This document shows, in pieces, positions 11,157 to 59,741 of a DNA stretch of 64,000 nt. How positions within the stretch are numbered: position 1 is the first letter of the stretch; every line of letters begins with the position of its first letter. The translations under genes and the position numbers were made by a program. A model generated the notes under the pieces. The model did not search any database. It was not told the DNA's origin and worked only from the letters and a program-made list of their open reading frames with translations. Source of the stretch: a virus (Duplodnaviria; Caudoviricetes); IMG/VR virus record IMGVR_UViG_3300021255_000131, positions 1-64,000 of that record. The stretch is one strand, 5' to 3'.

Positions 11157-13796
11157 ATGACGGTTGGAAAAAAAGCAGTATCAGTAGATGGTCTTAAAAC
11201 TGTTTATGATTTACAAAATTCTAATATTGCTTCAAAGTTTAATATTGATACAAATTATGCCGTAGGAGATTATGTCATATATCAAGGCCGTTTATATCGT
11301 TTTGTCATTACACACGCGGCTGGCGAATGGAATAATACTCATGTTGTTAGCGTTGATGTAACTAGCGAAATTGACGCCGCCAATGGTTTAGTTGGCAATA
11401 TAAACATGGGTACAATAGCTACGACTGTAACTGGGGCCATCGCAGAACATGAAAGCGATATTAATGCTTTAAATACGAAGCTTGGCAACATCGCGATGGG
11501 CACGACGGCTACCACCGTGACCGGTGCCATCGCAGAACATGAAGGCGATCTCAGTGCACTAAATAGTTCTATTGATCTAACCAAAGCAGAAGCACTGGCG
11601 GCTTTCTCGGAATCCTCCGCAGGCCCTGCCGACATGCTGACAGTAACGGACGGCGCTGACAATATCCCGCTGAAAAGCCTGACCGTGGCGATTGAGCCGA
11701 AGCAGGACTTACACGGCTACGACCATCCGTGGGTCGGTGGAGCTGGGAAGAATTTGGTTTGCAGCACAATCGCGAAAATCAAGGAAGTAAATACTCAAGG
11801 TACGTGGACGAGTGATACTGCTTACAAACATAACGGCATTACGTTTACAATTACTTCGCATGACGGCGTCAGCATCGATGCCGTAAAAATCGGAGGTATG
11901 GCAAATAGTGATGCCTATTTCCGTTTAGACAGTCCTCGCACCGATTTCCCGACTGGCAATTTAATCGCGAATGCTGGTGTGGTAATCCCACAGGGCGGAG
12001 GAGTTTACATGGGCACCAGCTGTGTCTTCGCAGACATTTATAGCGGTAAATTCAATAATGTCACGAACACAACTGATAAGCAATTTACGAATGATGGCAG
12101 CGGTAAAATAGAGCCAGCGCTTAAAGTACCAAATGGATCTATAGAATCCGGTGGTGTTTTAAGACCGATGATTCGTTTGGCCACAGAAGCAAGTTCAGCT
12201 TACGAGCCCTACTCCAACATCTGCCCGATCACCGGCTGGGACGAGGCGACCGTGACGAGGACGGGGAAGAATCTGCTGAATCCGAACGCCATTGGCGATG
12301 TTACTACTGGCAATGGAACGAGACAAGGCGTAGAGTTTACAATTCCAGGAGATTACACAATTAGTGCACAAGCCGCATACACTTCAAACGCTGGAAATAT
12401 TTACGTTACAAAATATGACGGTAGCACGTATAGCAATGGTGCGGCTATTGTGAATGGCTCTACTAAAAACAATCCGTTTACAAATACAATTACAGAAGGA
12501 CAGAAGCTGATCGTTCATGGCGGTTCTGGAATCAGTGCAGCAATCGCTGAAGATGTAATCGAAAAATGTTCTATTCAACTCGAATATGGTTCTGCTGCAA
12601 CCGCCTACGAACCCTACACGGACAACACCCTCCCCATTTCCATGAAATCCATCTCCGGCTCTACGGTCTACGGCGGCACAGTCACTGTCAACGAGGACGG
12701 CACAGGGACGCTGGTGGTGGATAGGGCGAAGGTTACACTGACTGGTAATGAATCGCTGGCGTACTCTACCAACACAAAATCCTTCTATCATGACGCGGCA
12801 GACACTGTTCCTGGTATCGCTGGGAAGGAATACACGGTTGCCTTTGATGGCGTATGCGACCGCTTCGCTCCGTATGATGGCGTGACTGCTTGGGCGAATC
12901 TGGCCATCGCTTGTGTCGGCTATGTGAACGCGGCCAGCCCGCGTCTGAGGTTCTCGATCCCTGGCGAAACGGAAGTCACGGAGGCGGTCAGAGCGAAACT
13001 CGCCGGAACTGAAGTGGCCTATAAACTCGCTGCGCCAGTCACTTACCCCCTCACCGCTACCCAGCTCCGCACCCTTCTCGGCAACAACATCCTCTGGTGC
13101 GATGCGGGTCATGTGACGATCACGTACAGGCAGGATACCGGGCTAGCGATTGACGCAAAGGCCGATCTTCTTCCAATAGAAGAAGGAAGCGGGAGCGACG
13201 CGATTCAATCACCGACTTGTACGGCTTCTGGCGATTACTCGAAAGCATTTGGTAAAGACAGTACAGCGAGTGGCACGTATGCCAGTGCTATAGGATATGA
13301 TGTTATCGCGTCTGGTTATGCAAGCCATGCGGAGGGCCATCACGTAACAGCGTCTGGAAATTATAGCCACGCTGAAGGCAGTTCCCAGATGGCCGGAAAC
13401 ATTGTACAAGTGCGCACAACCTCATCCGGTTCCGGCAGTCATGCAGAAGGTTTGGGCACAACCGCAACGCAAAATGGTTCACATGCTGAAGGTGTAGCAA
13501 CGCAGGCGCTTGGTAATTGCAGCCATGCTGAAGGCGAGCGTACGATAGCAAGAAGAGAATCGCAGCATGTATTCGGAAAGTATAACATAGAAGATACGAG
13601 TGGCACTGGCATGGGGCTTGGCCAATACGTGGAAATCGTTGGCAACGGCGACTACCAAACCCGTTCCAACGCCCGCACCCTTGACTGGAGCGGCAACGAG
13701 TCCTTGCAGGGCAGTCTGACGCTGGGCAAAGGGACAGCAGATGAAGCGACGGTCACCGCCGCGCAGTTGAAGGCGCTGCTGGCGTTGCTGAGTTAA
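11157..13796 (+). CDS. Tail fibre/adhesin with YadA-head-like (SHAEG) repeats
   Basis: 879 aa. Two 30-aa repeats near the N-terminus, 'YEPY' motifs, and C-terminal 14-aa 'ASGxYSHAEG' repeats. Confidence 0.7.
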   Translation: MTVGKKAVSVDGLKTVYDLQNSNIASKFNIDTNYAVGDYVIYQGRLYRFVITHAAGEWNNTHVVSVDVTSEIDAANGLVGNINMGTIATTVTGAIAEHESDINALNTKLGNIAMGTTATTVTGAIAEHEGDLSALNSSIDLTKAEALAAFSESSAGPADMLTVTDGADNIPLKSLTVAIEPKQDLHGYDHPWVGGAGKNLVCSTIAKIKEVNTQGTWTSDTAYKHNGITFTITSHDGVSIDAVKIGGMANSDAYFRLDSPRTDFPTGNLIANAGVVIPQGGGVYMGTSCVFADIYSGKFNNVTNTTDKQFTNDGSGKIEPALKVPNGSIESGGVLRPMIRLATEASSAYEPYSNICPITGWDEATVTRTGKNLLNPNAIGDVTTGNGTRQGVEFTIPGDYTISAQAAYTSNAGNIYVTKYDGSTYSNGAAIVNGSTKNNPFTNTITEGQKLIVHGGSGISAAIAEDVIEKCSIQLEYGSAATAYEPYTDNTLPISMKSISGSTVYGGTVTVNEDGTGTLVVDRAKVTLTGNESLAYSTNTKSFYHDAADTVPGIAGKEYTVAFDGVCDRFAPYDGVTAWANLAIACVGYVNAASPRLRFSIPGETEVTEAVRAKLAGTEVAYKLAAPVTYPLTATQLRTLLGNNILWCDAGHVTITYRQDTGLAIDAKADLLPIEEGSGSDAIQSPTCTASGDYSKAFGKDSTASGTYASAIGYDVIASGYASHAEGHHVTASGNYSHAEGSSQMAGNIVQVRTTSSGSGSHAEGLGTTATQNGSHAEGVATQALGNCSHAEGERTIARRESQHVFGKYNIEDTSGTGMGLGQYVEIVGNGDYQTRSNARTLDWSGNESLQGSLTLGKGTADEATVTAAQLKALLALLS

Positions 13797-13892
13797 ACAG
13801 AAGATATGACGATGGATTCTTAGCAAGTTATAGCTTAAATAAGTAATTTGAAGTTATTATTCAACTGAAAAATCAACATAAATTGACTTAGA

Positions 13893-16424
13893 ATGGAGGA
13901 ATGTGTAATGCCTATCGACAAACTAACACTTGGCGCCGCTATGGCTTTATGTGGAGGCGGAGGTGGAGAAGGTGGCGGCACCGTAGATTATGAAGCGAGA
14001 AATATGGCGCAAGATGCTTTGAATGAAGCAACGTCCGCAGCGAACAAAATAAATTTTTTAAATATTGAAAATGGTTCTGGATCAGGTTCTATTCAAGCAA
14101 ATGGCGCTACATCTACTGGCCTTTATAGCTTTGCAGAAGGTGAATCAACATCTAGCGGTTATTGCAGCCACTCCGAAGGATTTGCGTTGGCTGAAGGCGC
14201 ATATTCGCATGCCGAAGGTTCAAAAACAGTAGCATCTAAAAACAATGCTCACGCAGAAGGATTTTGGGCGGAAGCACAAGGTAAAAATAGTCATGCCGAA
14301 GGATATGGTGCAAAAGCAATTGGCGACCATGCTCATGCAGAAGGGTTTACGACGGAAGCACAAGGTAATGATAGTCATGCTGAAGGATTTTGTACAAAAG
14401 CAATTGGCGATGATAGCCATGCGGAAGGTTATATAACGGAAGCACAAGGTATTGCTAGTCATGCTGAAGGAGAAAATACAAAAGCAATTGGTCTGTATAG
14501 TCATGCTGAAGGACTGTATACCAAAGCAAATGGAGATGCTCAGCATGTGTTCGGAAAAAACAACATACCGGATGAATATGATCCAGACAATAACCAGCGT
14601 GGTAGATATGTGGAAATTGTTGGAAATGGTCAAAGTGATGAAAAGCGTAGTAACGCACGAACTCTTGATTGGTCCGGTAACGAAGTGCTTGCTGGCTCTT
14701 TAACTATTGGTGGAAACGAACAACTTACTAAGGAACAGCTTCAAGAAACGAAGAGCGCTACTGCAGAAGTAGGTAATTTAAAGAGCGCTGTTAGCATCGG
14801 CGAATACATCTATTTTACGGATGGTTTTTTATGGAGTTCCAGCGGGGCATTATCGGCCAATGCCAGTTATTGTGCATCTAAACAGCTAATGACCATAGAC
14901 CCGGAAAAACCGTGGCTGAAACTGACGAACTACGAATCTGACCGAGTGGATTTGGTATTTTTCGATGCAAGCGGAACGTTTATTTCCCCTCGCCAATCAC
15001 TATATAATGATAGTCCACTATTTATCAATGTAGTTGATAAAGCACCGGAAGGAGCGGCATATTTTTCCGTTTCTATTCGTAAAACAACAAATAAACCGTA
15101 TGCCAAACTGATTACCGCTGAAGAATGGGTTGGTGAGTACAACGGTTATGTTGATACGAACGGGAAAATTTGTATCGGCATTGTTGGCAGTAATGTTTAT
15201 AAAATGAAAATTTTGCCTGTGCATTCCGGGGATGTTGTCTCCGCTGAATCATCCGCTAACAGTAACATTGATGTTATTGCATTTTATGATTATAATTTCG
15301 GTTTCATAAACGGTATACAATACCTTGCGGCTGATATAACGAATTACAAGGCCATCGCGCCAGTTGACGGATATGCTATAGCATCCAGCACGACTGCGTC
15401 CTTTAATGATTTTGCATTGTCAATAGAGCCAGTCAACAATAATGATACAGATATAGTTCCTGACAACCATTATCCATATTATATCAATAACGGGACAGTC
15501 ACAGCCACAGAGACTTATTATTTGTCAAACTGTATTGTTGTACCAGCAGGAAAAGTGCTGATGGTAAGCGCAAACTGTGGCACAGCGGCGGCGGTGCTGT
15601 CTGATGGGCAAACAAACACTAATATAGCGACCGGGTATGGGACTACCTATGATTATTGGGTCTCCTGTTATGCCCCGGAAACAAAAATAGTGCGTATCTG
15701 CTGGCGGCCGGGATACGGTGACGGACTCAAAGCGTATACAACCACCCCGAACAAACGTCTGAACGGTAAAAGTCTATATTGTATCGGTGACAGCTATTTT
15801 GCTGGTAATAACCTCGTTTCCGATGCATATGCAAGAAATCATGTGTGGCCGAATCTGCTGGCGCTTAGAAACAACATGACCATAAATAACTATGGAGTAA
15901 ACGGCACAACGATCGCTGAATGCTCCGCGATGAGTACAGCAACAGGCCCTGCGAATTTTGCAGCGGTATCTGACCGCATTGATTTTGTTGATAGTAACTT
16001 TGATGTGTTCGTTTTTGAGGGCGGTAGCAATGACTATAGTAACGCTGTGCCGCTGGGCGATGAACTATTGAGCAATACTGACCGCGAAACGTTCCACGGG
16101 GCGATGCAGTATATTATTAACAAGGTGTATACGCTAAATCCGTCCGCGCTTATTTTTGCTCATCCGTGCTGGGTATCATCTAACGGAGCGAGTAACACTA
16201 CTACCGGGCTGACGAAAAATGCATATCAGGCGGCATTTATGAGTGCGTGCGCGAGAAACGGCGTGCCGTGTGTCCCGTCCAATAACAACGGCGTGGCAGT
16301 AACACAAGCGTCATATCGCGCGGAATTTATGATGGCATCAAATGATGCGTCCCATTTTAATATAGTTGGACACGCTAAGTATGTGCTGTTTGTCGAGAAG
16401 TGGCTGGATCGTTTTTGTGACTAA
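13893..16424 (+). CDS. Tail fibre/spike with YadA-head-like repeats and C-terminal SGNH esterase
   Basis: About 10 tandem 14-aa HAEG repeats (approx. 14130-14520). C-terminal GDSY, GVNGT, GGSND and DASH motifs. Confidence 0.7.
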   Translation: MEECVMPIDKLTLGAAMALCGGGGGEGGGTVDYEARNMAQDALNEATSAANKINFLNIENGSGSGSIQANGATSTGLYSFAEGESTSSGYCSHSEGFALAEGAYSHAEGSKTVASKNNAHAEGFWAEAQGKNSHAEGYGAKAIGDHAHAEGFTTEAQGNDSHAEGFCTKAIGDDSHAEGYITEAQGIASHAEGENTKAIGLYSHAEGLYTKANGDAQHVFGKNNIPDEYDPDNNQRGRYVEIVGNGQSDEKRSNARTLDWSGNEVLAGSLTIGGNEQLTKEQLQETKSATAEVGNLKSAVSIGEYIYFTDGFLWSSSGALSANASYCASKQLMTIDPEKPWLKLTNYESDRVDLVFFDASGTFISPRQSLYNDSPLFINVVDKAPEGAAYFSVSIRKTTNKPYAKLITAEEWVGEYNGYVDTNGKICIGIVGSNVYKMKILPVHSGDVVSAESSANSNIDVIAFYDYNFGFINGIQYLAADITNYKAIAPVDGYAIASSTTASFNDFALSIEPVNNNDTDIVPDNHYPYYINNGTVTATETYYLSNCIVVPAGKVLMVSANCGTAAAVLSDGQTNTNIATGYGTTYDYWVSCYAPETKIVRICWRPGYGDGLKAYTTTPNKRLNGKSLYCIGDSYFAGNNLVSDAYARNHVWPNLLALRNNMTINNYGVNGTTIAECSAMSTATGPANFAAVSDRIDFVDSNFDVFVFEGGSNDYSNAVPLGDELLSNTDRETFHGAMQYIINKVYTLNPSALIFAHPCWVSSNGASNTTTGLTKNAYQAAFMSACARNGVPCVPSNNNGVAVTQASYRAEFMMASNDASHFNIVGHAKYVLFVEKWLDRFCD

Positions 16425-50153: not shown

Positions 50154-50657
50154 TTATTGATGTAGTTTGGGTTTAGCATTGGACGACGTGAGATGATAGA
50201 AATGATCATCCCGCGTCAGGATCTCTGACATCAGAGGTTTCTTTTCCCAGAAAGCTTTGAGCCTGGCGAAGCCCTGGTCGGCCACCCTGCCAATATCCGG
50301 ATCGGGCACGCGCTTGATGAAGAGCGCGGGCCCTGTCTGATAGCCGGAAATATCGCACGGGAACCAGAACAGTCCGCCTTCCGGGTAGTATTTGCGCATC
50401 TTCTTGTTCTTGCGCCGGCCTGTTTGATACATCGTATCCCGCGTGCGGTAGCAGGAGAGAAAATCGATCATCTCCTCATGCCCGGTCAGCGTGGTGACAA
50501 GGACCTTCGGCATGGCGCCCAAGGTATTGTCCGGCTGAACGACGCGCCAGGGGGCGCGGCTTTCCGCCGTGCCCCTGGTTTTGCAGAGCACGTAAGAGGG
50601 AACGATGTTGCCTTTGCGCATATCCGTTTTCTTTACAATGGCGAGGTAGTAATACAT
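50154..50657 (-). CDS. Hypothetical basic protein
   Basis: AAGGAGG RBS; overlaps the 3' end of the RNA polymerase gene. Confidence 0.6.
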   Translation of the reverse strand: MYYYLAIVKKTDMRKGNIVPSYVLCKTRGTAESRAPWRVVQPDNTLGAMPKVLVTTLTGHEEMIDFLSCYRTRDTMYQTGRRKNKKMRKYYPEGGLFWFPCDISGYQTGPALFIKRVPDPDIGRVADQGFARLKAFWEKKPLMSEILTRDDHFYHLTSSNAKPKLHQ

Positions 50658-53452
50658 ACTTCCTCCTTGCGGCGCAGACGTTCTTTGACTTTGCTGGCGC
50701 GTTTAACAAGCTTCCTGTGCTTCGCCTGGCATTCCGGGCAGCGCTTTTGCCGACCATTGAGCCGGTGGCACCACTTGCCGCACTCGACACAGGTGAAGAA
50801 CCCTTTGACTGCGGCGGAACAGCCGTGCTCTTCCGTCCAGACGGGCAGCTTTATGCCGCAGTGAACGCAGGTAACGCAAGTCATGAGATTCAGCTTGAGA
50901 TTGCGTAATGCAATGTCTCCAAACACACGCCAGAACATTTGCTTATGCGCGGCTTTATCTTTTCCGTCGCCGACGAACAGGGTGTACGCGATGGACGGAT
51001 ACGCGGCTTCAATGCTGCCGCACAGCTCAGTGAGCTTATCTGTAATCAGTTCTTTGAGCGCCTCATAGCCGAAGGCGTTGTACATTTCCATAACGTCCAT
51101 CATGGACGCTCCGTCAATTCTGGATTGCAGATTGCTGTCATCGAGCCGGGAAAAAAGTTCAACGGCTTCTGTGTTGATCTCCGTGACCGGAGCTTCCAGA
51201 AACATCTCGCCGTTGAAGGGTGGAACGCCTACTGCGTTTAAGTTGATGTTGCCGATATTATCAAATAAAGCGCAAAGCCTGTTCATGGTAGAATTGTTGG
51301 CTTTCGCGCACTGCTTCTTCTTTTTCGTCGTGTCTGCATGGCGGCCGTTCTTGGAGAACTGGAACCAGTAAGGCATCTTACCGTTCGGGCCGCCGATTGC
51401 TTTATTGATTTTCGCAGAGACTTCCGGATAATTGGTATAACCGTTGACGGAACCTGTTTTGGCCCCGTCGATCGTGAGATTGTTGAAGTAACACAAAAGC
51501 GCGGCAGACTGTAAATCAGGATGCGGTCTGTTCCAAAGCCTGGTCAGGGCGTTTGAAATCTGGCCGATGCCACTGTAGTCATGCGCGCGCTTGACCCCGT
51601 GAAACAATGTTTCAAGGGAAATCTGTTCGGACGCGGCCTTGGTCGCGTCATAGAACAGGGGAACGATATCATACTCTTGAATGTTTCGCTTGGCGTTGTC
51701 GATCAGAATACGGTCTGAGACAACGTTGAGCTGATCTCCGTCTACATCGAACTGAAGAATTCTTGATATCAGATCATGACAGCTGGTGTAAATGCCGTTC
51801 GTGTAAAACCACGAGGCGATTTCCGGATCGTGATTGACGGTGCGAATCGCATGCTCGTTGAAAAGATGCGGACTCCTTAGAACATCTACCTCGTCTACAT
51901 CCCTGAACGGACGGGCAAAGACTTCGCCGTTTTTCAACAAACCTTCCGGCTCCTTCTGACCGAGAAACCAGTATTGGCAAGCGGCATACAGATCCGGAAT
52001 GGCAAACAGGCGTTTGTTTTTACAGCGTATTTTGCCGGACTTGGCGTCGAGCGTCCAACGCTTTTTGATTGCCTTCAAAGACTCTCTGGAATAAGCTTCG
52101 CGCAACAGCTCCGGATATAAAGTAAGCGCCTGACGATACGGGACTTCCGAATAATCGTCGGCGCCGAGCGCGTGAAGCATGTGTTCCCGGTCGTTCGAGA
52201 GGCTTTTGATCCGATCGTAGGTAGGCCTGACAAACTCCTTCAGCTCATTCTGTGGAAAATTTTGAAGCGTTTGAATGAACTGATAGTTGAGCTCGCTGTT
52301 GCCAATGTACGCCTCTTCCATGTTGGTGCGGCCAAATGTACAGCCGCAGGTCTTGAAGAAGGATTTGTACTCATCCCAGCTGTCGTAGTACTTCCACAGC
52401 TTGAGTTGTGACTTGGTGAAGACGACCTGTATGTCTTCCGCGCGGAGATCGTGCATCTGACCCCAGACGTCTTTCAGCTTTGCCTCGCAGCCGTTTTCCT
52501 CGCAGAAGCGTAGAAAATTAAAACTGCACAATAGGCCCTTTAAAAATGGACCTCGTATCATGAAATTCCATCTGGATACAGAAGGCAGCATCATGCCCGC
52601 GCCGTCACAATGGTTGATAACGACGGTCCGTTCGCCGCGCTCGATGGTGTAATCCGGACTGATATAATCCATCAGGCCGGTGACGGGAGCTTCAAAGTCG
52701 TCCACGACGATGCAGCGGTCAATATCGAGCGGGTAAGGATCCGTTGCCGAGCATGGCAGGGCCAAATACGCCATGAGCTTACTCGTATTAATTCCACCCC
52801 GTTCGTTGATGCGCTCCCAGCTGAGGCCGCACATAATGCGCGGCTCGATTCTTGACCAGGCGTCGTCTGAGAGAAACTGCACCTTGTCCGTTCTGAGCTG
52901 GCCGGCCGAAGCCGTAGAAAAGCGATAGCGTTTGACGGAAACGGAGCCATCCTCGTTCAGCACAGACATATTAAAACCCTGAAGGATGATCTGTCTTAAG
53001 ATATCTTCTGATTTCCACTTGATGATAATCTTGTCGAAGGTGATGTCGTTTTCGTTCAGGCCGAGGGCGCGGGTTTCTTCTGATACGAACTCGGCGATGC
53101 GGCGGTTGGGTTTGAGCGTTTTCCACGTGACGCCCGGCGGGCGTTCTGGAAGCGTTGGATCGAGGACGGCGCTGAGATTCACCGTCCGGGGGACATGCTC
53201 GTGCGAAGCGATGAGCTTGGCGAGAGCGTTTTGCTGTACACGTTTTTCATTGACGATTTCCTGACGGTTAGGTACGGTATCATTCAGCATGCGTTTCAAA
53301 CGGGCGATGTTGAAGAAAATCACGCGCTCCTCGTCAGTCAGCAGATCGTACGTAGAGAAACTTGCGAGGCGGATTTGACTGCTCAGATAAGATTTGTTAC
53401 TCGTGAAACCACCTCTTTTGAAAAGTAAAGCGGCATGTGCCGCTGGGTGCAT
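50633..53452 (-). CDS. YonO-like single-subunit two-barrel DNA-dependent RNA polymerase
   Basis: 'ASAGQLR', 'HCDGAGM', 'IRGPFLKG', 'LRSPHL' and catalytic 'LQFDVDGD', as in the SPbeta YonO/RdRP-like family. C-terminal Cys-rich Zn ribbons. Start uncertain (~53405-53452). Confidence 0.85.
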   Translation of the reverse strand: MHPAAHAALLFKRGGFTSNKSYLSSQIRLASFSTYDLLTDEERVIFFNIARLKRMLNDTVPNRQEIVNEKRVQQNALAKLIASHEHVPRTVNLSAVLDPTLPERPPGVTWKTLKPNRRIAEFVSEETRALGLNENDITFDKIIIKWKSEDILRQIILQGFNMSVLNEDGSVSVKRYRFSTASAGQLRTDKVQFLSDDAWSRIEPRIMCGLSWERINERGGINTSKLMAYLALPCSATDPYPLDIDRCIVVDDFEAPVTGLMDYISPDYTIERGERTVVINHCDGAGMMLPSVSRWNFMIRGPFLKGLLCSFNFLRFCEENGCEAKLKDVWGQMHDLRAEDIQVVFTKSQLKLWKYYDSWDEYKSFFKTCGCTFGRTNMEEAYIGNSELNYQFIQTLQNFPQNELKEFVRPTYDRIKSLSNDREHMLHALGADDYSEVPYRQALTLYPELLREAYSRESLKAIKKRWTLDAKSGKIRCKNKRLFAIPDLYAACQYWFLGQKEPEGLLKNGEVFARPFRDVDEVDVLRSPHLFNEHAIRTVNHDPEIASWFYTNGIYTSCHDLISRILQFDVDGDQLNVVSDRILIDNAKRNIQEYDIVPLFYDATKAASEQISLETLFHGVKRAHDYSGIGQISNALTRLWNRPHPDLQSAALLCYFNNLTIDGAKTGSVNGYTNYPEVSAKINKAIGGPNGKMPYWFQFSKNGRHADTTKKKKQCAKANNSTMNRLCALFDNIGNINLNAVGVPPFNGEMFLEAPVTEINTEAVELFSRLDDSNLQSRIDGASMMDVMEMYNAFGYEALKELITDKLTELCGSIEAAYPSIAYTLFVGDGKDKAAHKQMFWRVFGDIALRNLKLNLMTCVTCVHCGIKLPVWTEEHGCSAAVKGFFTCVECGKWCHRLNGRQKRCPECQAKHRKLVKRASKVKERLRRKEEVCITTSPL

Positions 53453-53484: not shown

Positions 53485-53680
53485 TTGAAAACCGGAGGCA
53501 TCGTCTCTAAGTTGTTCTACTCCGAGGATCGTTTCGGCGGTGGCTGCCACCAGGCGTAGCCTTGGTGGCAGCCTGAGCCGAAACGAGCCGAGAAATCGTA
53601 ATTTAAGACGAAGCTCCTGATGACATCAAGAGTGCTAAACCCGCAGGTAAAGCCAGTGCACGATGCCTCCGGTTGTTCAA
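53485..53680 (-). ncRNA. Retron-type msr/msd ncRNA, located 3' of the RT gene
   Basis: Terminal inverted repeat AACCGGAGGCATCGT (53490-53504) / ACGATGCCTCCGGTT (53660-53674), extended by TTGAA/TTCAA. Unpaired G at 53659. Short msr-like stems, then a long msd-like hairpin at 53529-53586. Confidence 0.78.
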
Positions 53681-54832
53681 TCAGTTTGCATAACGCAATG
53701 CTTGTTTAATCATTACGTTTTTGTCGTACCACCAGATGTGAAACTTCCCTTTGGTATGATCGAACACATGCTTGGTGAATTCTGGTTCGATATAGCTGTA
53801 GTAGCTCCAGCGGCCGATGAAAGATTTGACCCAATCTTTTGACAGCGTTCCGCGGAAATTCTTGACGAAGTTGTACATATCCGCTTTGAAGAGCCGTTTC
53901 ACCTGATGGCCGATGGTGATCTTGTGATCGGCGTTCAGCATGTAGCCGAGATTCCAGTTCGCGCCTTTGATGCTGCCATATCTGGTCTTTTTGCTGTTCA
54001 GTTTATAAGGATAGCCCAGCCTGAACAGGAGACCAAGGACATCGTGGTGGATGATGTATTGTTTGACGTGGCTGAAGTCGCCATAGCCTGAGATCAGACA
54101 ATCGTCCGCGTAGCGGGTGTAGACATAGCCCGATCCCAGGACCCTGGTCAGCTCATAATCAAATGGGATCATGATCAGATTGGTGAGCATGGGGGAAAGC
54201 GTTGTGCCCTGCGGCAAACCGCCACGCAGGAACGCGTAGCTCAACGCCTTTTCGAGCTTTGCTTTTCTGGCCGGATCCTGCATAAATGTATTGAACGGCC
54301 AAATTGCGCCCAGAATATTCATGACTGTCGCGAGCGAAGTCGAGCCAAAGAAATCATGAAAATCGGTCTTCAGGAAGTAACTGCTGTTCTGATGCCGCTG
54401 GATGCACTTGTAGGTGTTGCGATAGCGGACGTAAGCGTAGGCCGCGCTGTGATACAGCGCGAAGAACCGCCTGCGGAGAATTTTCTCGATTTCTTCATGA
54501 ACTTTTCTGAGCTCAGGCTTGGGATCATCGATGGGCCTGACGCCGCCGGAACGCTTTGGGATGGTGTAATGCTTGTACCAGCTTTCCGGATCGCCGGTGA
54601 CGGTTTTCTCCGCCAGATCGATCACGGCGTCGAGCGCGGTCTCGGCCGCTTCCGCGTCAAAAAGGTAGGAGAATTCCTGCGGGACGGTGTTGGTTTTGAT
54701 TGTTTTCGTCGCTGCGGAGCCGTACATGAAGTTGCTTTCAGCGCCCGGAATCTCAGGATCAGTGTCCATCAGAAGAGACATGTATATTTGTTCTTCGTTT
54801 GTTTTGCCAAAGAGGCGCCGCGTAATGTACAT
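53681..54832 (-). CDS. Retron-type reverse transcriptase
   Basis: 'YTIPKRSGGVRPI..P..L', 'AYAY', 'CIQRH' (region X position), 'KTDFHDFFGS', 'LPQGTTLSPMLTN', 'YTRYADD', 'NSKKTR' and 'NLG' (region Y position). 383 aa with no evident maturase or endonuclease domain. Confidence 0.9.
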   Translation of the reverse strand: MYITRRLFGKTNEEQIYMSLLMDTDPEIPGAESNFMYGSAATKTIKTNTVPQEFSYLFDAEAAETALDAVIDLAEKTVTGDPESWYKHYTIPKRSGGVRPIDDPKPELRKVHEEIEKILRRRFFALYHSAAYAYVRYRNTYKCIQRHQNSSYFLKTDFHDFFGSTSLATVMNILGAIWPFNTFMQDPARKAKLEKALSYAFLRGGLPQGTTLSPMLTNLIMIPFDYELTRVLGSGYVYTRYADDCLISGYGDFSHVKQYIIHHDVLGLLFRLGYPYKLNSKKTRYGSIKGANWNLGYMLNADHKITIGHQVKRLFKADMYNFVKNFRGTLSKDWVKSFIGRWSYYSYIEPEFTKHVFDHTKGKFHIWWYDKNVMIKQALRYAN

Positions 54833-54842
54833 TTTAACTCCT

Positions 54843-55514
54843 TTACAGGGCGAGAACGTCCCAGGTTTCCGTATTGATCAGGATGGTTTTCTTGATGGTT
54901 TTCTTCTTGACGAAGTCAAGAAAGTTGACGACGCCGCAGGTGACGATCATACGAACGGTGGCGGCGACGCCCAGTGTGACGCGGCACGCGGACATCGGCG
55001 TCTCCTGTGCCGCTTCCTCATGCGTGAATTGCATTGAAGCGATGAACGCTTCTTTCTGCTTTTCATTAGACCAGTCCGCCGCGTAATGCTGCGCGTCGGT
55101 CAGGCGTGTTCTGAAATCGAACATAGCCTTGATGAACGGATTGCTCTTGTTCTCTTCAGCAATCTTACGGCGCAGCTCGATATTATCAACGCAGAGGAAG
55201 ACATAGCCGCTCAGCTTCTGATTGGTGTAGCCTTTGTCCGCGACGCGCAGAGATTCCGCGATTTCCGGGTTAATGGCCACAAGATGATCAGCCAGGGCTG
55301 TCACCTTTTCTTTGCCGATGTCCGCCGAAGTAAACATCTGGTTAACGATGTTCTTGGGCTCAACGTAATCGAAATCATAGAGCGTGATGTCCTTGAGCCC
55401 GTAACGAACAAGCAGCTCCGCAAGCGTAGAGCCTACGGAGCCGCAGCCGATGATATGGATACGGCCTTCCGCCATGGAAGGCTGAAAGAAGTCATAGCTT
55501 TTCGACAGATCCAT
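54843..55514 (-). CDS. E1/ThiF-family adenylating enzyme
   Basis: 'IIGCGSVGS', 'DFDYVEPKNIVNQ', 'CVDNIELR', and candidate catalytic Cys in 'MSAC'. Confidence 0.92.
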   Translation of the reverse strand: MDLSKSYDFFQPSMAEGRIHIIGCGSVGSTLAELLVRYGLKDITLYDFDYVEPKNIVNQMFTSADIGKEKVTALADHLVAINPEIAESLRVADKGYTNQKLSGYVFLCVDNIELRRKIAEENKSNPFIKAMFDFRTRLTDAQHYAADWSNEKQKEAFIASMQFTHEEAAQETPMSACRVTLGVAATVRMIVTCGVVNFLDFVKKKTIKKTILINTETWDVLAL

Positions 55515-56344
55515 TACGAATAACTCCTTCCGTACGGATAGCCGCGACCGTAAGGCGCCGTGCCATCGTCAAAAAGATCGTCGTAATCTTCGTACGGGTC
55601 CTCAGCGGCCTTTTTTTGCTTTTCCTTTTCCTTTTTCTCTTTCTTTCCGCCGTTGATAACCGTACCTGTAAAGACCGTTTTTTTAACCCTGGCCTGCGCG
55701 GCCTGAATGAAACTCGTTTTGGTGTAGGTGTTGTCCGTGCCGCCGTAGTCGAACACGATGGAGAGATCGATATCCTTCGTTTCATACATGACGTTGTTCG
55801 GGATATCGTAGATAGCGCTGCTGATTTCACCCTTCTTGTTCCAGATCTGGAAAATCCAGGCTTTATCAGGATCAGACGCCTTCATCAGATTCGCTCGGTG
55901 CGTCATATCGGTCGAGGAAGGGAACACGGCCATATTGACATGACTGTGACCGTGAAAGAACATATGATCCGCCTGGTCCTGTGTGAGATGCTGCAGGAAC
56001 ATCGGGTAGCTGTTTTCGCCCTCGTAGACGGTGTTGACGGTCGTGCCGGTCACCTCCTGATCGTACACGAGGACGTCGTAGACGAGCCAGGTTCTGTCGC
56101 TGGTCTTGCGTACCAGGGCGTGCCAGCCGACCTCAGAATCGAATTTCTGAACGAGCAGCAGCATCTTGATGTACGCTTCCGCGGAATATGAGATGGTGGC
56201 GCGTTCTTCCGGCAGCGCGTCGCGGGACGCGAAGCTACGGGTGAAGGTGAAGTGTCCGTCGGACAGACGAGCCGTCTCGAGCTCCTTCAGGAACTCCTGT
56301 CTCATTTTCTCTTTATCGGCTTCGGTAATTGTAATCGGTTTCAT
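55514..56344 (-). CDS. JAB/JAMM metallopeptidase
   Basis: 'SEVGW' Glu plus an exact HxHx7SxxD (HSHVNMAVFPSSTD). Charged, low-complexity tail. Confidence 0.88.
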   Translation of the reverse strand: MKPITITEADKEKMRQEFLKELETARLSDGHFTFTRSFASRDALPEERATISYSAEAYIKMLLLVQKFDSEVGWHALVRKTSDRTWLVYDVLVYDQEVTGTTVNTVYEGENSYPMFLQHLTQDQADHMFFHGHSHVNMAVFPSSTDMTHRANLMKASDPDKAWIFQIWNKKGEISSAIYDIPNNVMYETKDIDLSIVFDYGGTDNTYTKTSFIQAAQARVKKTVFTGTVINGGKKEKKEKEKQKKAAEDPYEDYDDLFDDGTAPYGRGYPYGRSYS

Positions 56345-57693
56345 TTCTGCTCCTTCAGTTTCTCCAACGCTTCTTTTGCGTTATATTCGTTGCCGTCCTT
56401 GTCGATGAGGACTTTTTCTTTCTTGGTGGTGGCGAAGAGCCGCTTCATAAACGGGATAAAGGTGACGCCTGTCTCTGCCAGGTTGATAGACTGGCAGGAC
56501 GCGACGCACTGCTCAATGGCGCCGATATAGTTGCTGTTGCGGATCGCCGTTCTGATCGGGTCGCGGTAAGAACCGAGACACTGATGATATTGCAGATGCG
56601 GATTCGGAAGATACTGACGGGTCAGCTCTTCCGGATATTCGTAATTGCGGAAGACGGCCACGTCCGTGTTGAGCGCGTATATGGCGCACAGACGAATGCG
56701 GAAAACCGGATCATCCGAGAAGATCGCGTCCATCAGGAGTTTGCGGTCTTCTACCTTGCAGAAAGGCGGATCGGCGGTCATACGGTAGATAGAGCCGTTC
56801 GAGGAGGCACGGCGATAAAAGTCCAGGTCGAACCAGTCTGCGGTCGTCTTGACGTAGAATTTGATGGTGCCGTCGGAAACGTTGACAAGCTGAAGGTTCT
56901 TGTGCCGCTTGAAATAATCGACAAGCTCGGTGCTCTCGTTCTTCGGTCGGGCGAGCAGGGCTTCATATTTAATCGTCGCGTCGTTGACCTTCTGCACCAG
57001 GCGGGCGTATTCGGCGACATTATCTTCGAGCGCCGCCCGTGCGACCCGCAGGGTGTTGTTGGTTTCATCAATACTGCGTTCGAGCTCGACGTTGGCGAAG
57101 CGCTTAAGCAGGACTTCGTTCAGCTCGTTCTCAAGACCGGACTGACGGACCAGCTTCGCGATCATGGACTCGAAGTCTCCAGAGGTGCGCTTGGTCATGG
57201 AGAAGCATAACTTCTTCTCGTCATCGGTCAGCGGCTTTTCATCAAATGGCGTTTTGATAAACAGCGGGAGCAGCGACATAAGCATGTGCGTCTTGCGGGT
57301 ATCGAGCTCCTGCGAGAAGACGACCGCGCTGTTGATATCATGGTTGACGAAGATCTGGCAGCTCAGCCATTTCGAAAGATAGTTTTCGGCCTTTTCGAGC
57401 TTGGTGTAGGCGGGATGCGACGCGGCGAACGAATCGTCGGTCGTGTGAACGATATTGAAGGATTTCGGCAGCTGCGTGTCCGGGATCGGCCACGACTCCT
57501 TAATGCTTCTGAGGGTCAGGGTTTCGTCTTCCGGCAGCCTGTTAAACAAAAGAATCCTTGCCGTCGCGAGGCATGTGCTATCATCCGAATCGAACGGGTA
57601 ATGTTTATCGACGCTGATTCTGCTGAGGATTCCGTGTTCGTTGCCGAACGTGTCGGTCAGGCCGCGGACGGTATTGAATGTTGCGCTGAACAT
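56341..57693 (-). CDS. Coiled-coil protein with C-terminal prokaryotic E2-like domain
   Basis: 'LPNPHLQYHQCLG' resembles the E2 HPN..CL(G) active-site region. It lies between the Ubl and JAB genes. Confidence 0.65.
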   Translation of the reverse strand: MFSATFNTVRGLTDTFGNEHGILSRISVDKHYPFDSDDSTCLATARILLFNRLPEDETLTLRSIKESWPIPDTQLPKSFNIVHTTDDSFAASHPAYTKLEKAENYLSKWLSCQIFVNHDINSAVVFSQELDTRKTHMLMSLLPLFIKTPFDEKPLTDDEKKLCFSMTKRTSGDFESMIAKLVRQSGLENELNEVLLKRFANVELERSIDETNNTLRVARAALEDNVAEYARLVQKVNDATIKYEALLARPKNESTELVDYFKRHKNLQLVNVSDGTIKFYVKTTADWFDLDFYRRASSNGSIYRMTADPPFCKVEDRKLLMDAIFSDDPVFRIRLCAIYALNTDVAVFRNYEYPEELTRQYLPNPHLQYHQCLGSYRDPIRTAIRNSNYIGAIEQCVASCQSINLAETGVTFIPFMKRLFATTKKEKVLIDKDGNEYNAKEALEKLKEQK

Positions 57694-57714
57694 AGTTACT
57701 CCTTTTGTTTAAGA

Positions 57715-57741
57715 GGCTGCCGCGAGTAAACCGCGGCAGCC
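57715..57741. other. Intergenic hairpin between the Ubl and E2 genes
   Basis: GGCTGCCGCG-AGTAAAC-CGCGGCAGCC. It may attenuate downstream expression or stabilise the Ubl mRNA. Confidence 0.5.
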
Positions 57742-57749
57742 CTGAATGA

Positions 57750-58364
57750 TTACTGAATGGTGATGAAGCCCTTGATCTTCTCCTGATCCGCGTGGATGGA
57801 CGCGACGGCGTCAGCGAAGTTCTCCTCGATCTTGTTCAGATAGAGCAGGCCCATGCCGATCTTGTCGGTCAGCTGGGCTTCGATATCATTGTCGCGGTCG
57901 ACGCACATTGTGATGGTGGCGTAGCCTTCCTGGTTCGTGGCCTCGGAGAAGGTGGCGCCCTTATCGTTGATAGAGCCGGAGGAGCGGGTGGTCACGTCGA
58001 TGCCGAAGAGCTGCTCGTTCTTCTTATCGTCCTTGTAGAGCTTCAGAGCCTCGGGGCGATACTTCTTCGCGAGCTGAATATCCTCGAGCTTCAGCGCGGA
58101 GGTGACGACAGCGGCTTCACCGATAACGGTCACGGTGGCGGCGTTATCCGCCTTCACGACGACGGACAGGTAGCAGGCATCCTCGATACCGTGCTGCGCG
58201 AATGTCTTATCGAGATCGCCGGGACGCAGGGAGCATCCGTCGATCTGGGTCATGCCGACGGAATAGTTGACGCGGTTCTCGTCGAGAACTTCGCGGACGG
58301 TGGCGTCTTCAGAAACGTTGATGGTTTTGCGGCCGGAATTGGTGATGAGGGTGATCTGGATCAT
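57750..58364 (-). CDS. Ubiquitin-like (beta-grasp) domain fused to a ~130-aa C-terminal domain
   Basis: Start MIQITL after AAGGAG. 'ITLITNSGRKTINVSEDATVREVL..IDG..L...DLDKTFAQHGIEDACYLSVVVKADNA' follows the Ub-fold pattern. Confidence 0.72.
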   Translation of the reverse strand: MIQITLITNSGRKTINVSEDATVREVLDENRVNYSVGMTQIDGCSLRPGDLDKTFAQHGIEDACYLSVVVKADNAATVTVIGEAAVVTSALKLEDIQLAKKYRPEALKLYKDDKKNEQLFGIDVTTRSSGSINDKGATFSEATNQEGYATITMCVDRDNDIEAQLTDKIGMGLLYLNKIEENFADAVASIHADQEKIKGFITIQ

Positions 58365-58562: not shown

Positions 58563-58895
58563 TTACAGCAATGAAAGAAATTCCGCGGGATCCGCTTCGA
58601 GCTCGTTCATTTCCGACTCCGAAAGCAGCATCCAGTCTGCCCAGTTGTATGCCCGGTTGAACTGTTTTCTGTGTTCCTCGTTCGGGTCGATGCACGACAA
58701 TGTGTAGGTTCTGGCATTTTTATACGTTATCTCGCATTTGTATCCCGCGAAAGTTGTCATTTCCGGAACAACGGATGGGCTGCGATGGGATTCGATGATA
58801 TCCGGATGGATATAGACGACGCTGCCCTCTTTAAAAAGTTTGGTGCCCTCTCTCTCCTTGCATCTTTGATTTGCAAGTCCTTCAAAGTTGAGCAT
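58563..58895 (-). CDS. Small SH3/KOW-like protein with EFLSLL tail
   Basis: 'LFKEGSVVYIHPDI..VVPEM..FAG...IT...Y.L..W.DWML'. Confidence 0.7.
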   Translation of the reverse strand: MLNFEGLANQRCKEREGTKLFKEGSVVYIHPDIIESHRSPSVVPEMTTFAGYKCEITYKNARTYTLSCIDPNEEHRKQFNRAYNWADWMLLSESEMNELEADPAEFLSLL

Positions 58896-58896
58896 A

Positions 58897-59103
58897 TCAG
58901 CCTCCGAGCATTTGAAAATGCTTCTTCTCTGTCGTCGTGTCTTCCGGCACCTTTCTGAGCTGCGAGGCGCGGAAGTATCGCTTTCCTCCCAACTGGTTGC
59001 GGCAGGTGTAATAAACGTCTCCGTCCTGTCCGGTGTCTATGACCTCGTAAATGTCACCGGTGGCCACGTATAAAACCGCATCTCCGTTCTGATACCTTCT
59101 CAT
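58897..59103 (-). CDS. Small SH3-like protein
   Basis: 'YQNGDAVLY..GDIYEVID..YYTC'; ends HFQMLGG. Confidence 0.6.
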   Translation of the reverse strand: MRRYQNGDAVLYVATGDIYEVIDTGQDGDVYYTCRNQLGGKRYFRASQLRKVPEDTTTEKKHFQMLGG

Positions 59104-59387
59104 ACAAGCATTCCTTCAAATTCTTCGGCCGTGACGGGGTCTTCCGTTTCCGGTGGGACAAACATGTAATCGGCCCAGTAAAACGGGCATTCCTCGAGCG
59201 TGTATGAATCCGGATGCACGTGTTGAATGGTCATTTCCTGGCCTCGGTAGTCGAGCATATCGCTGACGACGGACGGACCAAAATCGAGATCGTCGGTCAG
59301 GTCCGTTCTGACGACAACTTTATCGCCGACCTGAAACAGATCGGCATTGGCATGTTCCAAACAATATTCATCTGTCAATTCAGGCAT
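59100..59387 (-). CDS. Small SH3/KOW-like protein with EFEGML tail
   Basis: 'LFQVGDKVVVRTDL..VVSDMLDYRGQEMTI..YTLEE..WADYMF'. Confidence 0.75.
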   Translation of the reverse strand: MPELTDEYCLEHANADLFQVGDKVVVRTDLTDDLDFGPSVVSDMLDYRGQEMTIQHVHPDSYTLEECPFYWADYMFVPPETEDPVTAEEFEGMLV

Positions 59388-59444
59388 ATTTGCTCCTTCA
59401 TGAATCGTGTTGTTAGAAAAGATCTCCTTCGTGATATCCGGCGT

Positions 59445-59741
59445 TCACAGCAGCATGGCTTCAAACTCAGTCATGGAAACGTCTTCTTCGGGCGGTACCA
59501 GCATATAATCCTGCCAGTAGTAGGTTCGTATACGACAATCTTCGCCGCTCAGACGATAATAGACACCCTTTCTCTGGGCGACGAAGGCTGGTTGTCCCGA
59601 CAACTCGGTCATTAGCTCAGTGACGACCTTGCCATACGGCATCCTTTTTATCAGGTCCGGTCTGATGACAACGGCGTCTCCGACCTGAAACCATTCCGCT
59701 TTGCAGTGCGCTTGACAATAATCCGGTGTTAATTTTTCCAT
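59445..59741 (-). CDS. Small SH3/KOW-like protein with EFEAMLL tail (paralogue of 59100..59387)
   Basis: 'LTPDYC..H...WFQVGDAVVIRPDL..YYWQDYMLVPPE'. Confidence 0.75.
   Translation of the reverse strand: MEKLTPDYCQAHCKAEWFQVGDAVVIRPDLIKRMPYGKVVTELMTELSGQPAFVAQRKGVYYRLSGEDCRIRTYYWQDYMLVPPEEDVSMTEFEAMLL

Follow-up and report, generated by a model that had tools for sequence, protein, structure and literature searches.

What would a phage do with a retron and a ubiquitin-like conjugation cascade encoded side by side? Retrons and bacterial ubiquitin-like cascades have so far been described as host defences and as separate systems; in the locus studied here they make up one conserved unit in phages. 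The locus lies in a 64,000-nucleotide (nt) stretch (the window), the first 64 kb of the complete 111,048-bp virus record IMGVR_UViG_3300021255_000131, which has direct terminal repeats; the phage is uncultured. A block on its minus strand runs, in order, from a gene that fuses a ubiquitin-like protein (Ubl, the putative tag) to a protein called X here, through genes for an E2-like protein, a JAMM/JAB metallopeptidase, a minimal E1 and a reverse transcriptase (RT), to a noncoding RNA (ncRNA), and stands directly upstream of the gene for a 939-amino-acid (aa) RNA polymerase. The block is made up of six protein parts (Ubl, X, E2-like, JAB, E1 and RT), the first two fused in one gene. Our reading, to which we give a probability of about 0.7, is that the block is a single conserved phage module whose two parts, a retron unit and a ubiquitin-like conjugation cascade, act jointly.

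An initial annotation of the window, made from its letters alone, had listed five co-oriented genes and an ncRNA. Positions and strand proved right; the reading of the first gene as a plain Ubl did not, since the gene encodes a Ubl(1-75)-X(76-204) fusion. The tight packing that it described is likewise as stated. The E2-like and JAB genes overlap by 4 nt and the JAB and E1 genes by 1 nt; the RT ribosome-binding site spans the E1 stop (stop inside TAAAGGAG, 5 nt ahead of the RT ATG), and E1 and RT are separated by a spacer of 10 nt.

Conservation of the block in related phages

Because scans of viral contigs with single proteins were nearly empty (two loci with the RT as query, none with the E2-like protein), profile searches were needed to find relatives, and about 115 loci in all were retrieved through the E2-like protein or the RT. 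The E2-like profile gave 21 viral loci, which with six found earlier make 27, and Ubl, E2-like, JAB, E1 and RT follow one another in order in 27/27; the RT is also present in three further E2-like contigs. A search of 185,579 species genomes returned eight loci only, all on gut or rumen contigs of metagenome-assembled genomes and mostly binned with Clostridia. Six of these eight loci, found via the E2-like protein, have the RT, and the other two end before the RT position. Approached from the other side, the RT profile matched 293 viral stretches; in the best 80 of 293, which were examined (36-58% identity), E1, JAB, E2-like, Ubl and X are all present wherever the contig or the 8-kb flank reaches. 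All retrieved loci keep the order X, Ubl, E2-like, JAB, E1, RT unless the contig or the fetched flank ends, and the full set is still there at RT identities as low as 34-37%. By the initial annotation's own criterion, its reading would fall if related phages mostly had the Ubl cluster but no RT; no such cluster was found, save loci that end before the RT position, and the reading is supported.

The module is complete in 52/52 non-redundant loci, and its surroundings vary: the commonest upstream flanking gene occurs in 31/52 loci and the commonest downstream one in 12/52. Optional open reading frames (ORFs) occur inside the module with no part of it lost, one of ~167 aa between JAB and E1 (15/52) and one of ~265 aa between E1 and RT (18/52). 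Examples of these ORFs are L008 10371-10799 and L007 10717-11487; the ~265-aa ORF has a faint DUF6273 match, Pfam gave no useful match for the optional ORFs of relatives, and both are absent from the window.

In pairwise distances the RT tracks the E2-like protein, JAB and E1 (Spearman 0.66-0.82, permutation p 0.001), and these correlations are as strong as those among the three proteins themselves. This result, which bears on the congruence that the initial annotation had suggested looking for, shows co-inheritance, not co-evolution. Literature searches, including full-text searches, found no description of a retron joined to a ubiquitin-like cascade, in agreement with the earlier statement that none was known, and the pairing is not mentioned in the Bil paper (PMC10557695) or the conflict-systems literature.

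Reverse transcriptase and ncRNA

Hidden Markov model (HMM) matches, motifs and covariation show that the RT and the ncRNA, which is closed by the a1/a2 stem, form a retron-type unit. Judged by its sequence, the RT belongs to the retron RT clade. It matches RVT_1 in Pfam (1.4e-16), and in PADLOC only retron RTs rank among its best models (RT_II-A 1e-43, RT_III-A 9.8e-39, RT_I-A 4e-36). The NCBIfam model retron_St85_RT (3e-46) ranks far above the group II intron (1e-14) and Drt models, with a score of 158 bits against a cut-off of 235, which places the protein below the curated family cut-off. Among 21 sequences, the catalytic residues D157 and A242-D243-D244 never vary and Y241 hardly does; the YADD motif is intact in the window. 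The retron-specific regions are kept in part. The NAxxH of region X is down to an invariant H147 (the window reads C-I-Q-R-H), and region Y has N-L-G in place of VTG, with N292, L295 and G296 invariant; G is the most conserved residue of VTG (PMC7736814). Two other classes of RT were considered. A group II intron was rejected because the model scores are far below those of the retron models, and a diversity-generating retroelement because there is no template/variable repeat pair in the window and no second RT-ncRNA region in the genome.

The initial annotation had placed an ncRNA straight after the RT stop, and a strongly folded, a1/a2-closed RNA is found there: a 196-nt stretch has a minimum free energy of -102.7 kcal/mol (z -10.4), and 0/200 shuffles fold as well. 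Rfam has no family for it. The same intergenic region was aligned from five relatives, four of them independent (L009 and L117 share one RNA). In this window-form alignment, 7/14 pairs of a1/a2 are altered on both sides and 97.6% of cells pair, compared with 27-58% in a control in which the partners were slid by 1-3 columns. The long hairpin has a wholly different sequence in each phage, yet is a perfect hairpin each time, which is the pattern of a retron msd.

A covariance model of the msr hairpin (R1) was built from the larger sister (main) clade, and it misses the window's own ncRNA. R1 found 100 copies, every one in the orientation of the RT; 97.9% of cells pair, with 170 double changes versus 41 in shuffles. 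Copies adjoin the RT in 39/55 loci, on both sides in 26, upstream only in 8 and downstream only in 5; the 16/55 loci without an R1 copy next to the RT include the window's own subclade, which the model misses. Because sister-clade copies lie on both sides of the RT, upstream or downstream, the downstream ncRNA of the window is a variant in a family where the RT is mostly flanked by two to four such RNAs.

Two to four ncRNA copies surround one RT in most relatives, and the long hairpin differs in each copy; L008 has copies at 11496, 12974, 14280 and 14801, and L013 at 3893, 5101 and 6621. To our knowledge, a multi-template arrangement of this sort is not known in retrons.

The ubiquitin-like tag and protein X

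The Ubl ends in a conserved K-x-D-N-A, which reads K-A-D-N-A75 in the window. In an alignment of 18 sequences (mean column identity 70%), K71 and A75 are invariant and D73 and N74 nearly invariant. Its Pfam matches are all sub-threshold and all to ubiquitin-like families, namely DUF2604 (9/18 members), Rad60-SLD, TUG-UBL1 and OTU1_UBXL; a profile search of PDB sequences with the Ubl gave no match.

Most relatives have a stand-alone Ubl gene of 75-76 aa. X is a gene of its own, ~130 aa long and just upstream of the Ubl gene, in 74/106 loci, and a Ubl-X fusion is found in ~16. In the fused forms, the tag's terminal Ala joins an Ala next to the start Met that X has in the split forms. A KYRPxAL motif is conserved in the X alignment. 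No match to X was found in Pfam, PHROGs, NCBIfam, PADLOC or a PDB profile search, and ESM Atlas feature searches gave no result for it; the ESM Atlas model of Ubl-X is poor (predicted local distance difference test (pLDDT) 0.52), and its SRPBCC/CesT-like neighbours were not used.

X and Ubl also occur in tandem, the pair being duplicated in some loci. L083 (675-3087), with three pairs, carries two Ubl-X fusions beside an X and a Ubl that stand free, and L075 (667-2216) has two pairs. Such tandem copies suggest that several tag/partner variants are served by one enzyme set.

E2-like protein, peptidase and E1

The 450-aa protein has an N-terminal domain without a known match, a long helix (187-248) and a C-terminal domain (253-450) of UBC/RWD fold. 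Its sequence has no match in Pfam, PADLOC, PHROGs, NCBIfam or, by profile search, PDB chains, and ESM Atlas feature searches gave no result for the N-terminal domain. The predicted models are confident (pLDDT 92 for the whole protein, 94 for the C-terminal domain folded alone). In VIA-align, the long helix dominated the matches of the whole model; in a wide search with the C-terminal domain, the top 50 rows are mostly UBC, RWD or UEV domains with Z 4.0-6.9. They include the SEA-complex RWD domain 8adl_C (6.9), the Knl1 RWD domain (6.5), FANCL (6.0), Ubc9 (5.5) and many canonical E2s, and among bacterial proteins the BilB chain of an E1-E2-Ubl complex (8tyz_C, Z 5.2, root-mean-square deviation 3.3 over 84 residues) and Cap2 (7to3_A, Z 4.9). 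The first named row for the protein in ESM Atlas is an RWD cluster.

A candidate active site accompanies the fold. The motif N364-P365-H366-x5-C372 is invariant in relatives; in the model it follows strand 4 and precedes the next long helix. E2 enzymes have HPN and the catalytic Cys at the equivalent place, after strand 4. Because the VIA-align list is uniform, despite its modest Z values, and because of the position of this motif, we regard the predicted structure as that of an E2-like protein, by fold only, with a candidate active site. The initial annotation's claim that the E2-like protein keeps a Cys stands in the invariant C372, while the E2 identity itself comes from the fold, no sequence model matching. 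The family has 2427 representatives in public data at E <= 0.001 and no Pfam family.

The JAMM and ThiF motifs had been called intact along with YADD, and all three are. In the peptidase, E71...H133-S134-H135-x7-S143-x2-D146 is invariant in 21 sequences; its profile matches Rpn11 (E 0.0014, profile positions 42-149), and Pfam gave no match for the protein. The E1 is of ThiF type. It matches PADLOC Cap2 models (4.6e-19) in a region confined to their E1 part and lies below every NCBIfam cut-off, including those of ThiF, MoeB and PRTRC_ThiF; its best rows there are ThiF and MoeB. In 21 relatives G23/G25/G28, D110 and R135 are invariant, and the sole invariant Cys is C177, in ETPxSAC.

The recognition of the tag was modelled by predicting a complex of two E1 copies with the 75-aa Ubl, alongside three controls. 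The E1-Ubl complex scored 0.79 and the best of the controls 0.00; a mark of 0.79 is reached by 58/80 solved complexes and by 2/110 mismatched pairs. Across runs at least 95% of contacts agree, and the partner pLDDT is at least 88 (89). In the predicted complex, the Ubl tail (69-75) lies in the E1 ATP site and contacts E1 residues 23, 25-28, 107-112 and 134-137; A75 contacts residue 27 of the Gly-rich loop, with the tail touching the P-loop and the D110 and R135 regions. The prediction supports, rather than shows, binding of the tag by the minimal E1 with the C-terminal Ala in the ATP site.

Relation to retrons and bacterial conjugation systems

Retrons consist of an RT, an msr-msd ncRNA and an effector, fall into 13 types and are defence systems (Mestre et al. 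2020, PMC7736814). The present unit resembles them in that its RT best matches retron RT models (nearest type II-A / St85 (Sen2)) with YADD and the catalytic Asp intact, its ncRNA, closed by a1/a2, shows an invariant G where a1 ends as well as a long msd hairpin, and its accessory genes are tightly linked. It differs from them in an RT that is under the curated cut-off, with NAxxH reduced to His and VTG reading N-L-G. Whereas retrons have msr-msd upstream of the RT, the ncRNA here is downstream, and in many relatives there are ncRNAs on both sides, in 2-4 copies. The accessory set is a Ubl cascade, while no ThiF, ubiquitin or JAB effector appears in PMC7736814, and unlike described retrons the system is encoded by a large phage. 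Three PADLOC retron types score alike, and the module belongs to none of the 13 described types.

On the other half, the closest parallel is BilABCD (types I and II), a set of defence systems whose operons have the order Ubl, E2, JAB peptidase, E1 (PMC10557695). That order is shared, the peptidase is expected to pre-process the tag in both, and the fold of the E2-like domain matches the BilB chain 8tyz_C (Z 5.2) without a sequence match to PDB chains. Unlike the Bil tag, which ends in a reactive Gly, the tag here ends K-x-D-N-A. Its E1 is a single 223-aa domain, whereas the Bil E1 combines a mobile Cys domain with two adenylation domains in tandem, one inactive and one active. At its N-terminus the E2-like protein is longer by 250 residues; X, RT and ncRNA are added; and the set is phage-encoded, has no CapH/CapP regulators and has no sequence-level match to Bil proteins.

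With Cap2/Cap3 of the cyclic-oligonucleotide-based anti-phage signalling system (CBASS) the module shares an E1 adenylation domain (PADLOC Cap2 4.6e-19), an E2 fold (7to3_A, Z 4.9) and a JAB partner. Cap2, too, takes substrates ending in Ala as well as Gly. In contrast to CBASS, the module encodes E1 and E2 in two genes, has a small tag of its own and has no CD-NTase among its six proteins. The PRTRC cassette of plasmids and integrative elements is similar in that a mobile element there combines a ThiF-family enzyme with partners of E2-like and JAB type; the E1, however, scores 37.1 bits with PRTRC_ThiF (TIGR03736) against a cut-off of 144.75, and the other five proteins match no PRTRC model. 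ThiS/MoaD sulfur carriers end in Gly-Gly and have no E2 partner, unlike the present tag, which ends D-N-A and always has an E2-fold protein with it.

Possible mechanism and alternative explanations

If the two halves work together, the RT would prime on the 2'-OH of the invariant G53659 and copy the msd hairpin into multicopy single-stranded DNA (msDNA). The tag, encoded in the window as a Ubl-X precursor, as read from its sequence, would be freed from X by the JAMM peptidase, which the fusion suggests would cut after K-A-D-N-A75. The E1, which the predicted complex places in contact with the tag, would then adenylate its terminal Ala and carry it on C177. From there the tag would pass to C372 of the E2-like domain, as its fold and motif position suggest, and finally be attached to a target. 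Because X is always paired with the tag and because of the form of the natural fusion, X is the favoured candidate for the tag's partner or first target. By the usual logic of retrons, RT-msDNA would be the sensing or specificity arm and the tagging cascade the output arm, and the phage may deploy the module early in infection against host defences or rival phages. Such a specific arrangement, a retron with protein tagging as its output in which RT-msDNA directs or gates the Ubl cascade and which the virus uses in its own infection, not the host in defence, is a tentative proposal to which we give slightly less than an even chance. If true, it would tie reverse transcription directly to ubiquitin-like conjugation for the first time.

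Several points weigh against a joint module. We infer the msDNA, the cleavage, the thioesters and the conjugates alike. In the window the ncRNA sits after the RT, not before it, the tag has an Ala end, and the E1 has no separate Cys domain. Foldseek gave no match in the PDB for the whole E2-like model or for its C-terminal domain, and the VIA-align Z values of that domain are modest (4-7). The E1-Ubl score may partly stem from resemblance to solved ThiF-ThiS and E1-Ubl complexes. Lastly, descent in one phage group alone can give conserved order and correlated distances.

This last point is the core of a simpler account, in which a phage retron and a Ubl cascade are two independent systems, adjacent by inherited gene order and without mutual action. 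All loci belong to one broad phage group, in which descent by itself would be expected to leave a conserved order and correlated distances; moreover, in some loci E1 and RT are 1-6 kb apart, with other genes between. We consider this account unlikely, however, given that the flanks turn over (31/52 and 12/52) around six constant genes (52/52), that insertions occur inside the block with neither half lost, that the set is intact at RT identities of 34-37%, and that in the window E1, RT and ncRNA are packed together with only the 10-nt spacer between the first two. A retron of the abortive-infection kind with a new effector, carried as a defence 'moron' that guards the lysogen or infected cell against other phages and stands outside the phage's own programme, would fit what is known of the two halves, as known retrons are RT, ncRNA and effector defences (PMC7736814) and the Bil and CBASS Ubl sets are also defences (PMC10557695). 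It is nevertheless improbable: the block lies among early/replication genes, the 111-kb phage encodes RNA and DNA polymerases of its own, and 2427 E2-like representatives against 8 loci in 185,579 species genomes look like a core gene set.

The cascade might, alternatively, be a sulfur-carrier pathway in which ThiF-type adenylation leads to a thiocarboxylate, with JAMM trimming as in CysO/Mec and QbsE/QbsD, and sulfur is passed into nucleic acid, for example the RT product. Trios of a beta-grasp protein, a JAMM peptidase and an E1 are known from sulfur transfer, and the E1 here is a minimal, ThiF/MoeB-like single domain whose best NCBIfam rows are ThiF and MoeB. Yet the tag ends D-N-A and not Gly-Gly, a UBC-fold protein that has an invariant Cys always accompanies it, Pfam and NCBIfam scans found no rhodanese or sulfurtransferase domain in the six proteins, and the gene order is that of the Bil conjugation operons (PMC10557695), all of which makes a sulfur pathway very improbable.

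Within the reading that we favour, that of a joint module, the early/replication setting and a family that is broad and nearly absent from bacterial genomes speak for a tool that serves the phage in its own infection cycle and not for sporadic defence cargo. If both halves do work together, retrons would gain a new type, one whose output is enzymatic and does not look toxic. The E2, the tag, the JAMM peptidase and the minimal E1 would each add a new family, in a system that the virus itself carries and uses. Users of retrons for DNA production in cells may in addition find a compact RT with several short, hairpin-templating RNAs of interest.

Genome context and other features

The left 18 kb of the window encode tail proteins on the plus strand, and from ~24 kb on the genes are on the minus strand. 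This minus-strand arm includes NrdD, DNA polymerase, exonuclease, primase/helicase and the YonO/RdRP-type RNA polymerase, and the initial annotation was right to place the block in an early/replication arm. No match to the region turned up among 50,697 phage records searched by megablast. The features of the block and its immediate surroundings are collected in Table 1.

Table 1. Coordinates of the block and of adjoining features in the window
Feature	Position	Strand	Basis or remark
Ubl-X fusion gene, 204 aa (Ubl 1-75, X 76-204)	57750-58364	-	stop codon 57750-57752
Ubl domain, 75 aa, N-terminal part of Ubl-X	58140-58364	-	alignment and predicted E1 complex
Protein X domain, ~129 aa	57753-58139	-	fused to the Ubl C-terminus; family matches none
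9-bp GC-only hairpin between Ubl-X stop and E2-like start	57716-57740	-	arms GCTGCCGCG..CGCGGCAGC, no U tract; read from the sequence
E2-like protein, 450 aa	56341-57693	-	UBC/RWD-fold C-terminal domain, from models and invariant motif
JAMM/JAB metallopeptidase, 276 aa	55514-56344	-	motif and Rpn11 profile match; basic-then-acidic tail
Minimal E1, single ThiF-type adenylation domain, 223 aa	54843-55514	-	Pfam ThiF 3e-24, residues 13-202
Retron-type RT, 383 aa	53681-54832	-	HMM matches, catalytic motifs; ~80-aa N-terminal extension
Retron-like ncRNA, 185 nt	53490-53674	-	starts right after RT stop; a1/a2-closed fold
a1	53661-53674	-	14-15-bp closing stem with a2
Unpaired G53659, just after a1	53659	-	invariant
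msr hairpins, including conserved CUCUUGAUGUCAUCAGGAG	within 53490-53674	-	CUCUUGAUGUCAUCAGGAG kept in sequence
Long msd hairpin	about 53532-53587	-	structure kept, sequence not
a2	53490-53503	-	closing stem with a1
Conserved TTTCCTACAT, then CGCGC..GCGCG hairpin, between a2 and RNA polymerase start codon	53453-53489	-	kept in L009, L117, L118, L119
RNA polymerase, 939 aa, YonO/RdRP-type single-subunit	50633-53452	-	Pfam RdRP 2e-05 (just at cut-off); phrog_8308 4.7e-176

Two of the noncoding features may be regulatory. The GC-only hairpin behind the Ubl-X gene may set different levels of tag and enzymes, and TTTCCTACAT with its hairpin could be a promoter or translation signal for the RNA polymerase gene. 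That gene adjoins the ncRNA, and its homologue is split into pieces in L117, L119 and L042, with an HNH gene between the pieces in two of them.

At ~24000, where gene direction switches between the structural and the replication arm, G+C goes up from 0.42-0.47 to 0.50-0.56. At 58563-59741 on the minus strand, a series of small paralogous ORFs (95-110 aa) precedes the Ubl-X gene, and two of these ORFs have an 84-nt repeat in common (70% identity). The tail-fibre genes at 13439-14547 on the plus strand contain nine copies of a 42-nt (14-aa) tandem repeat.

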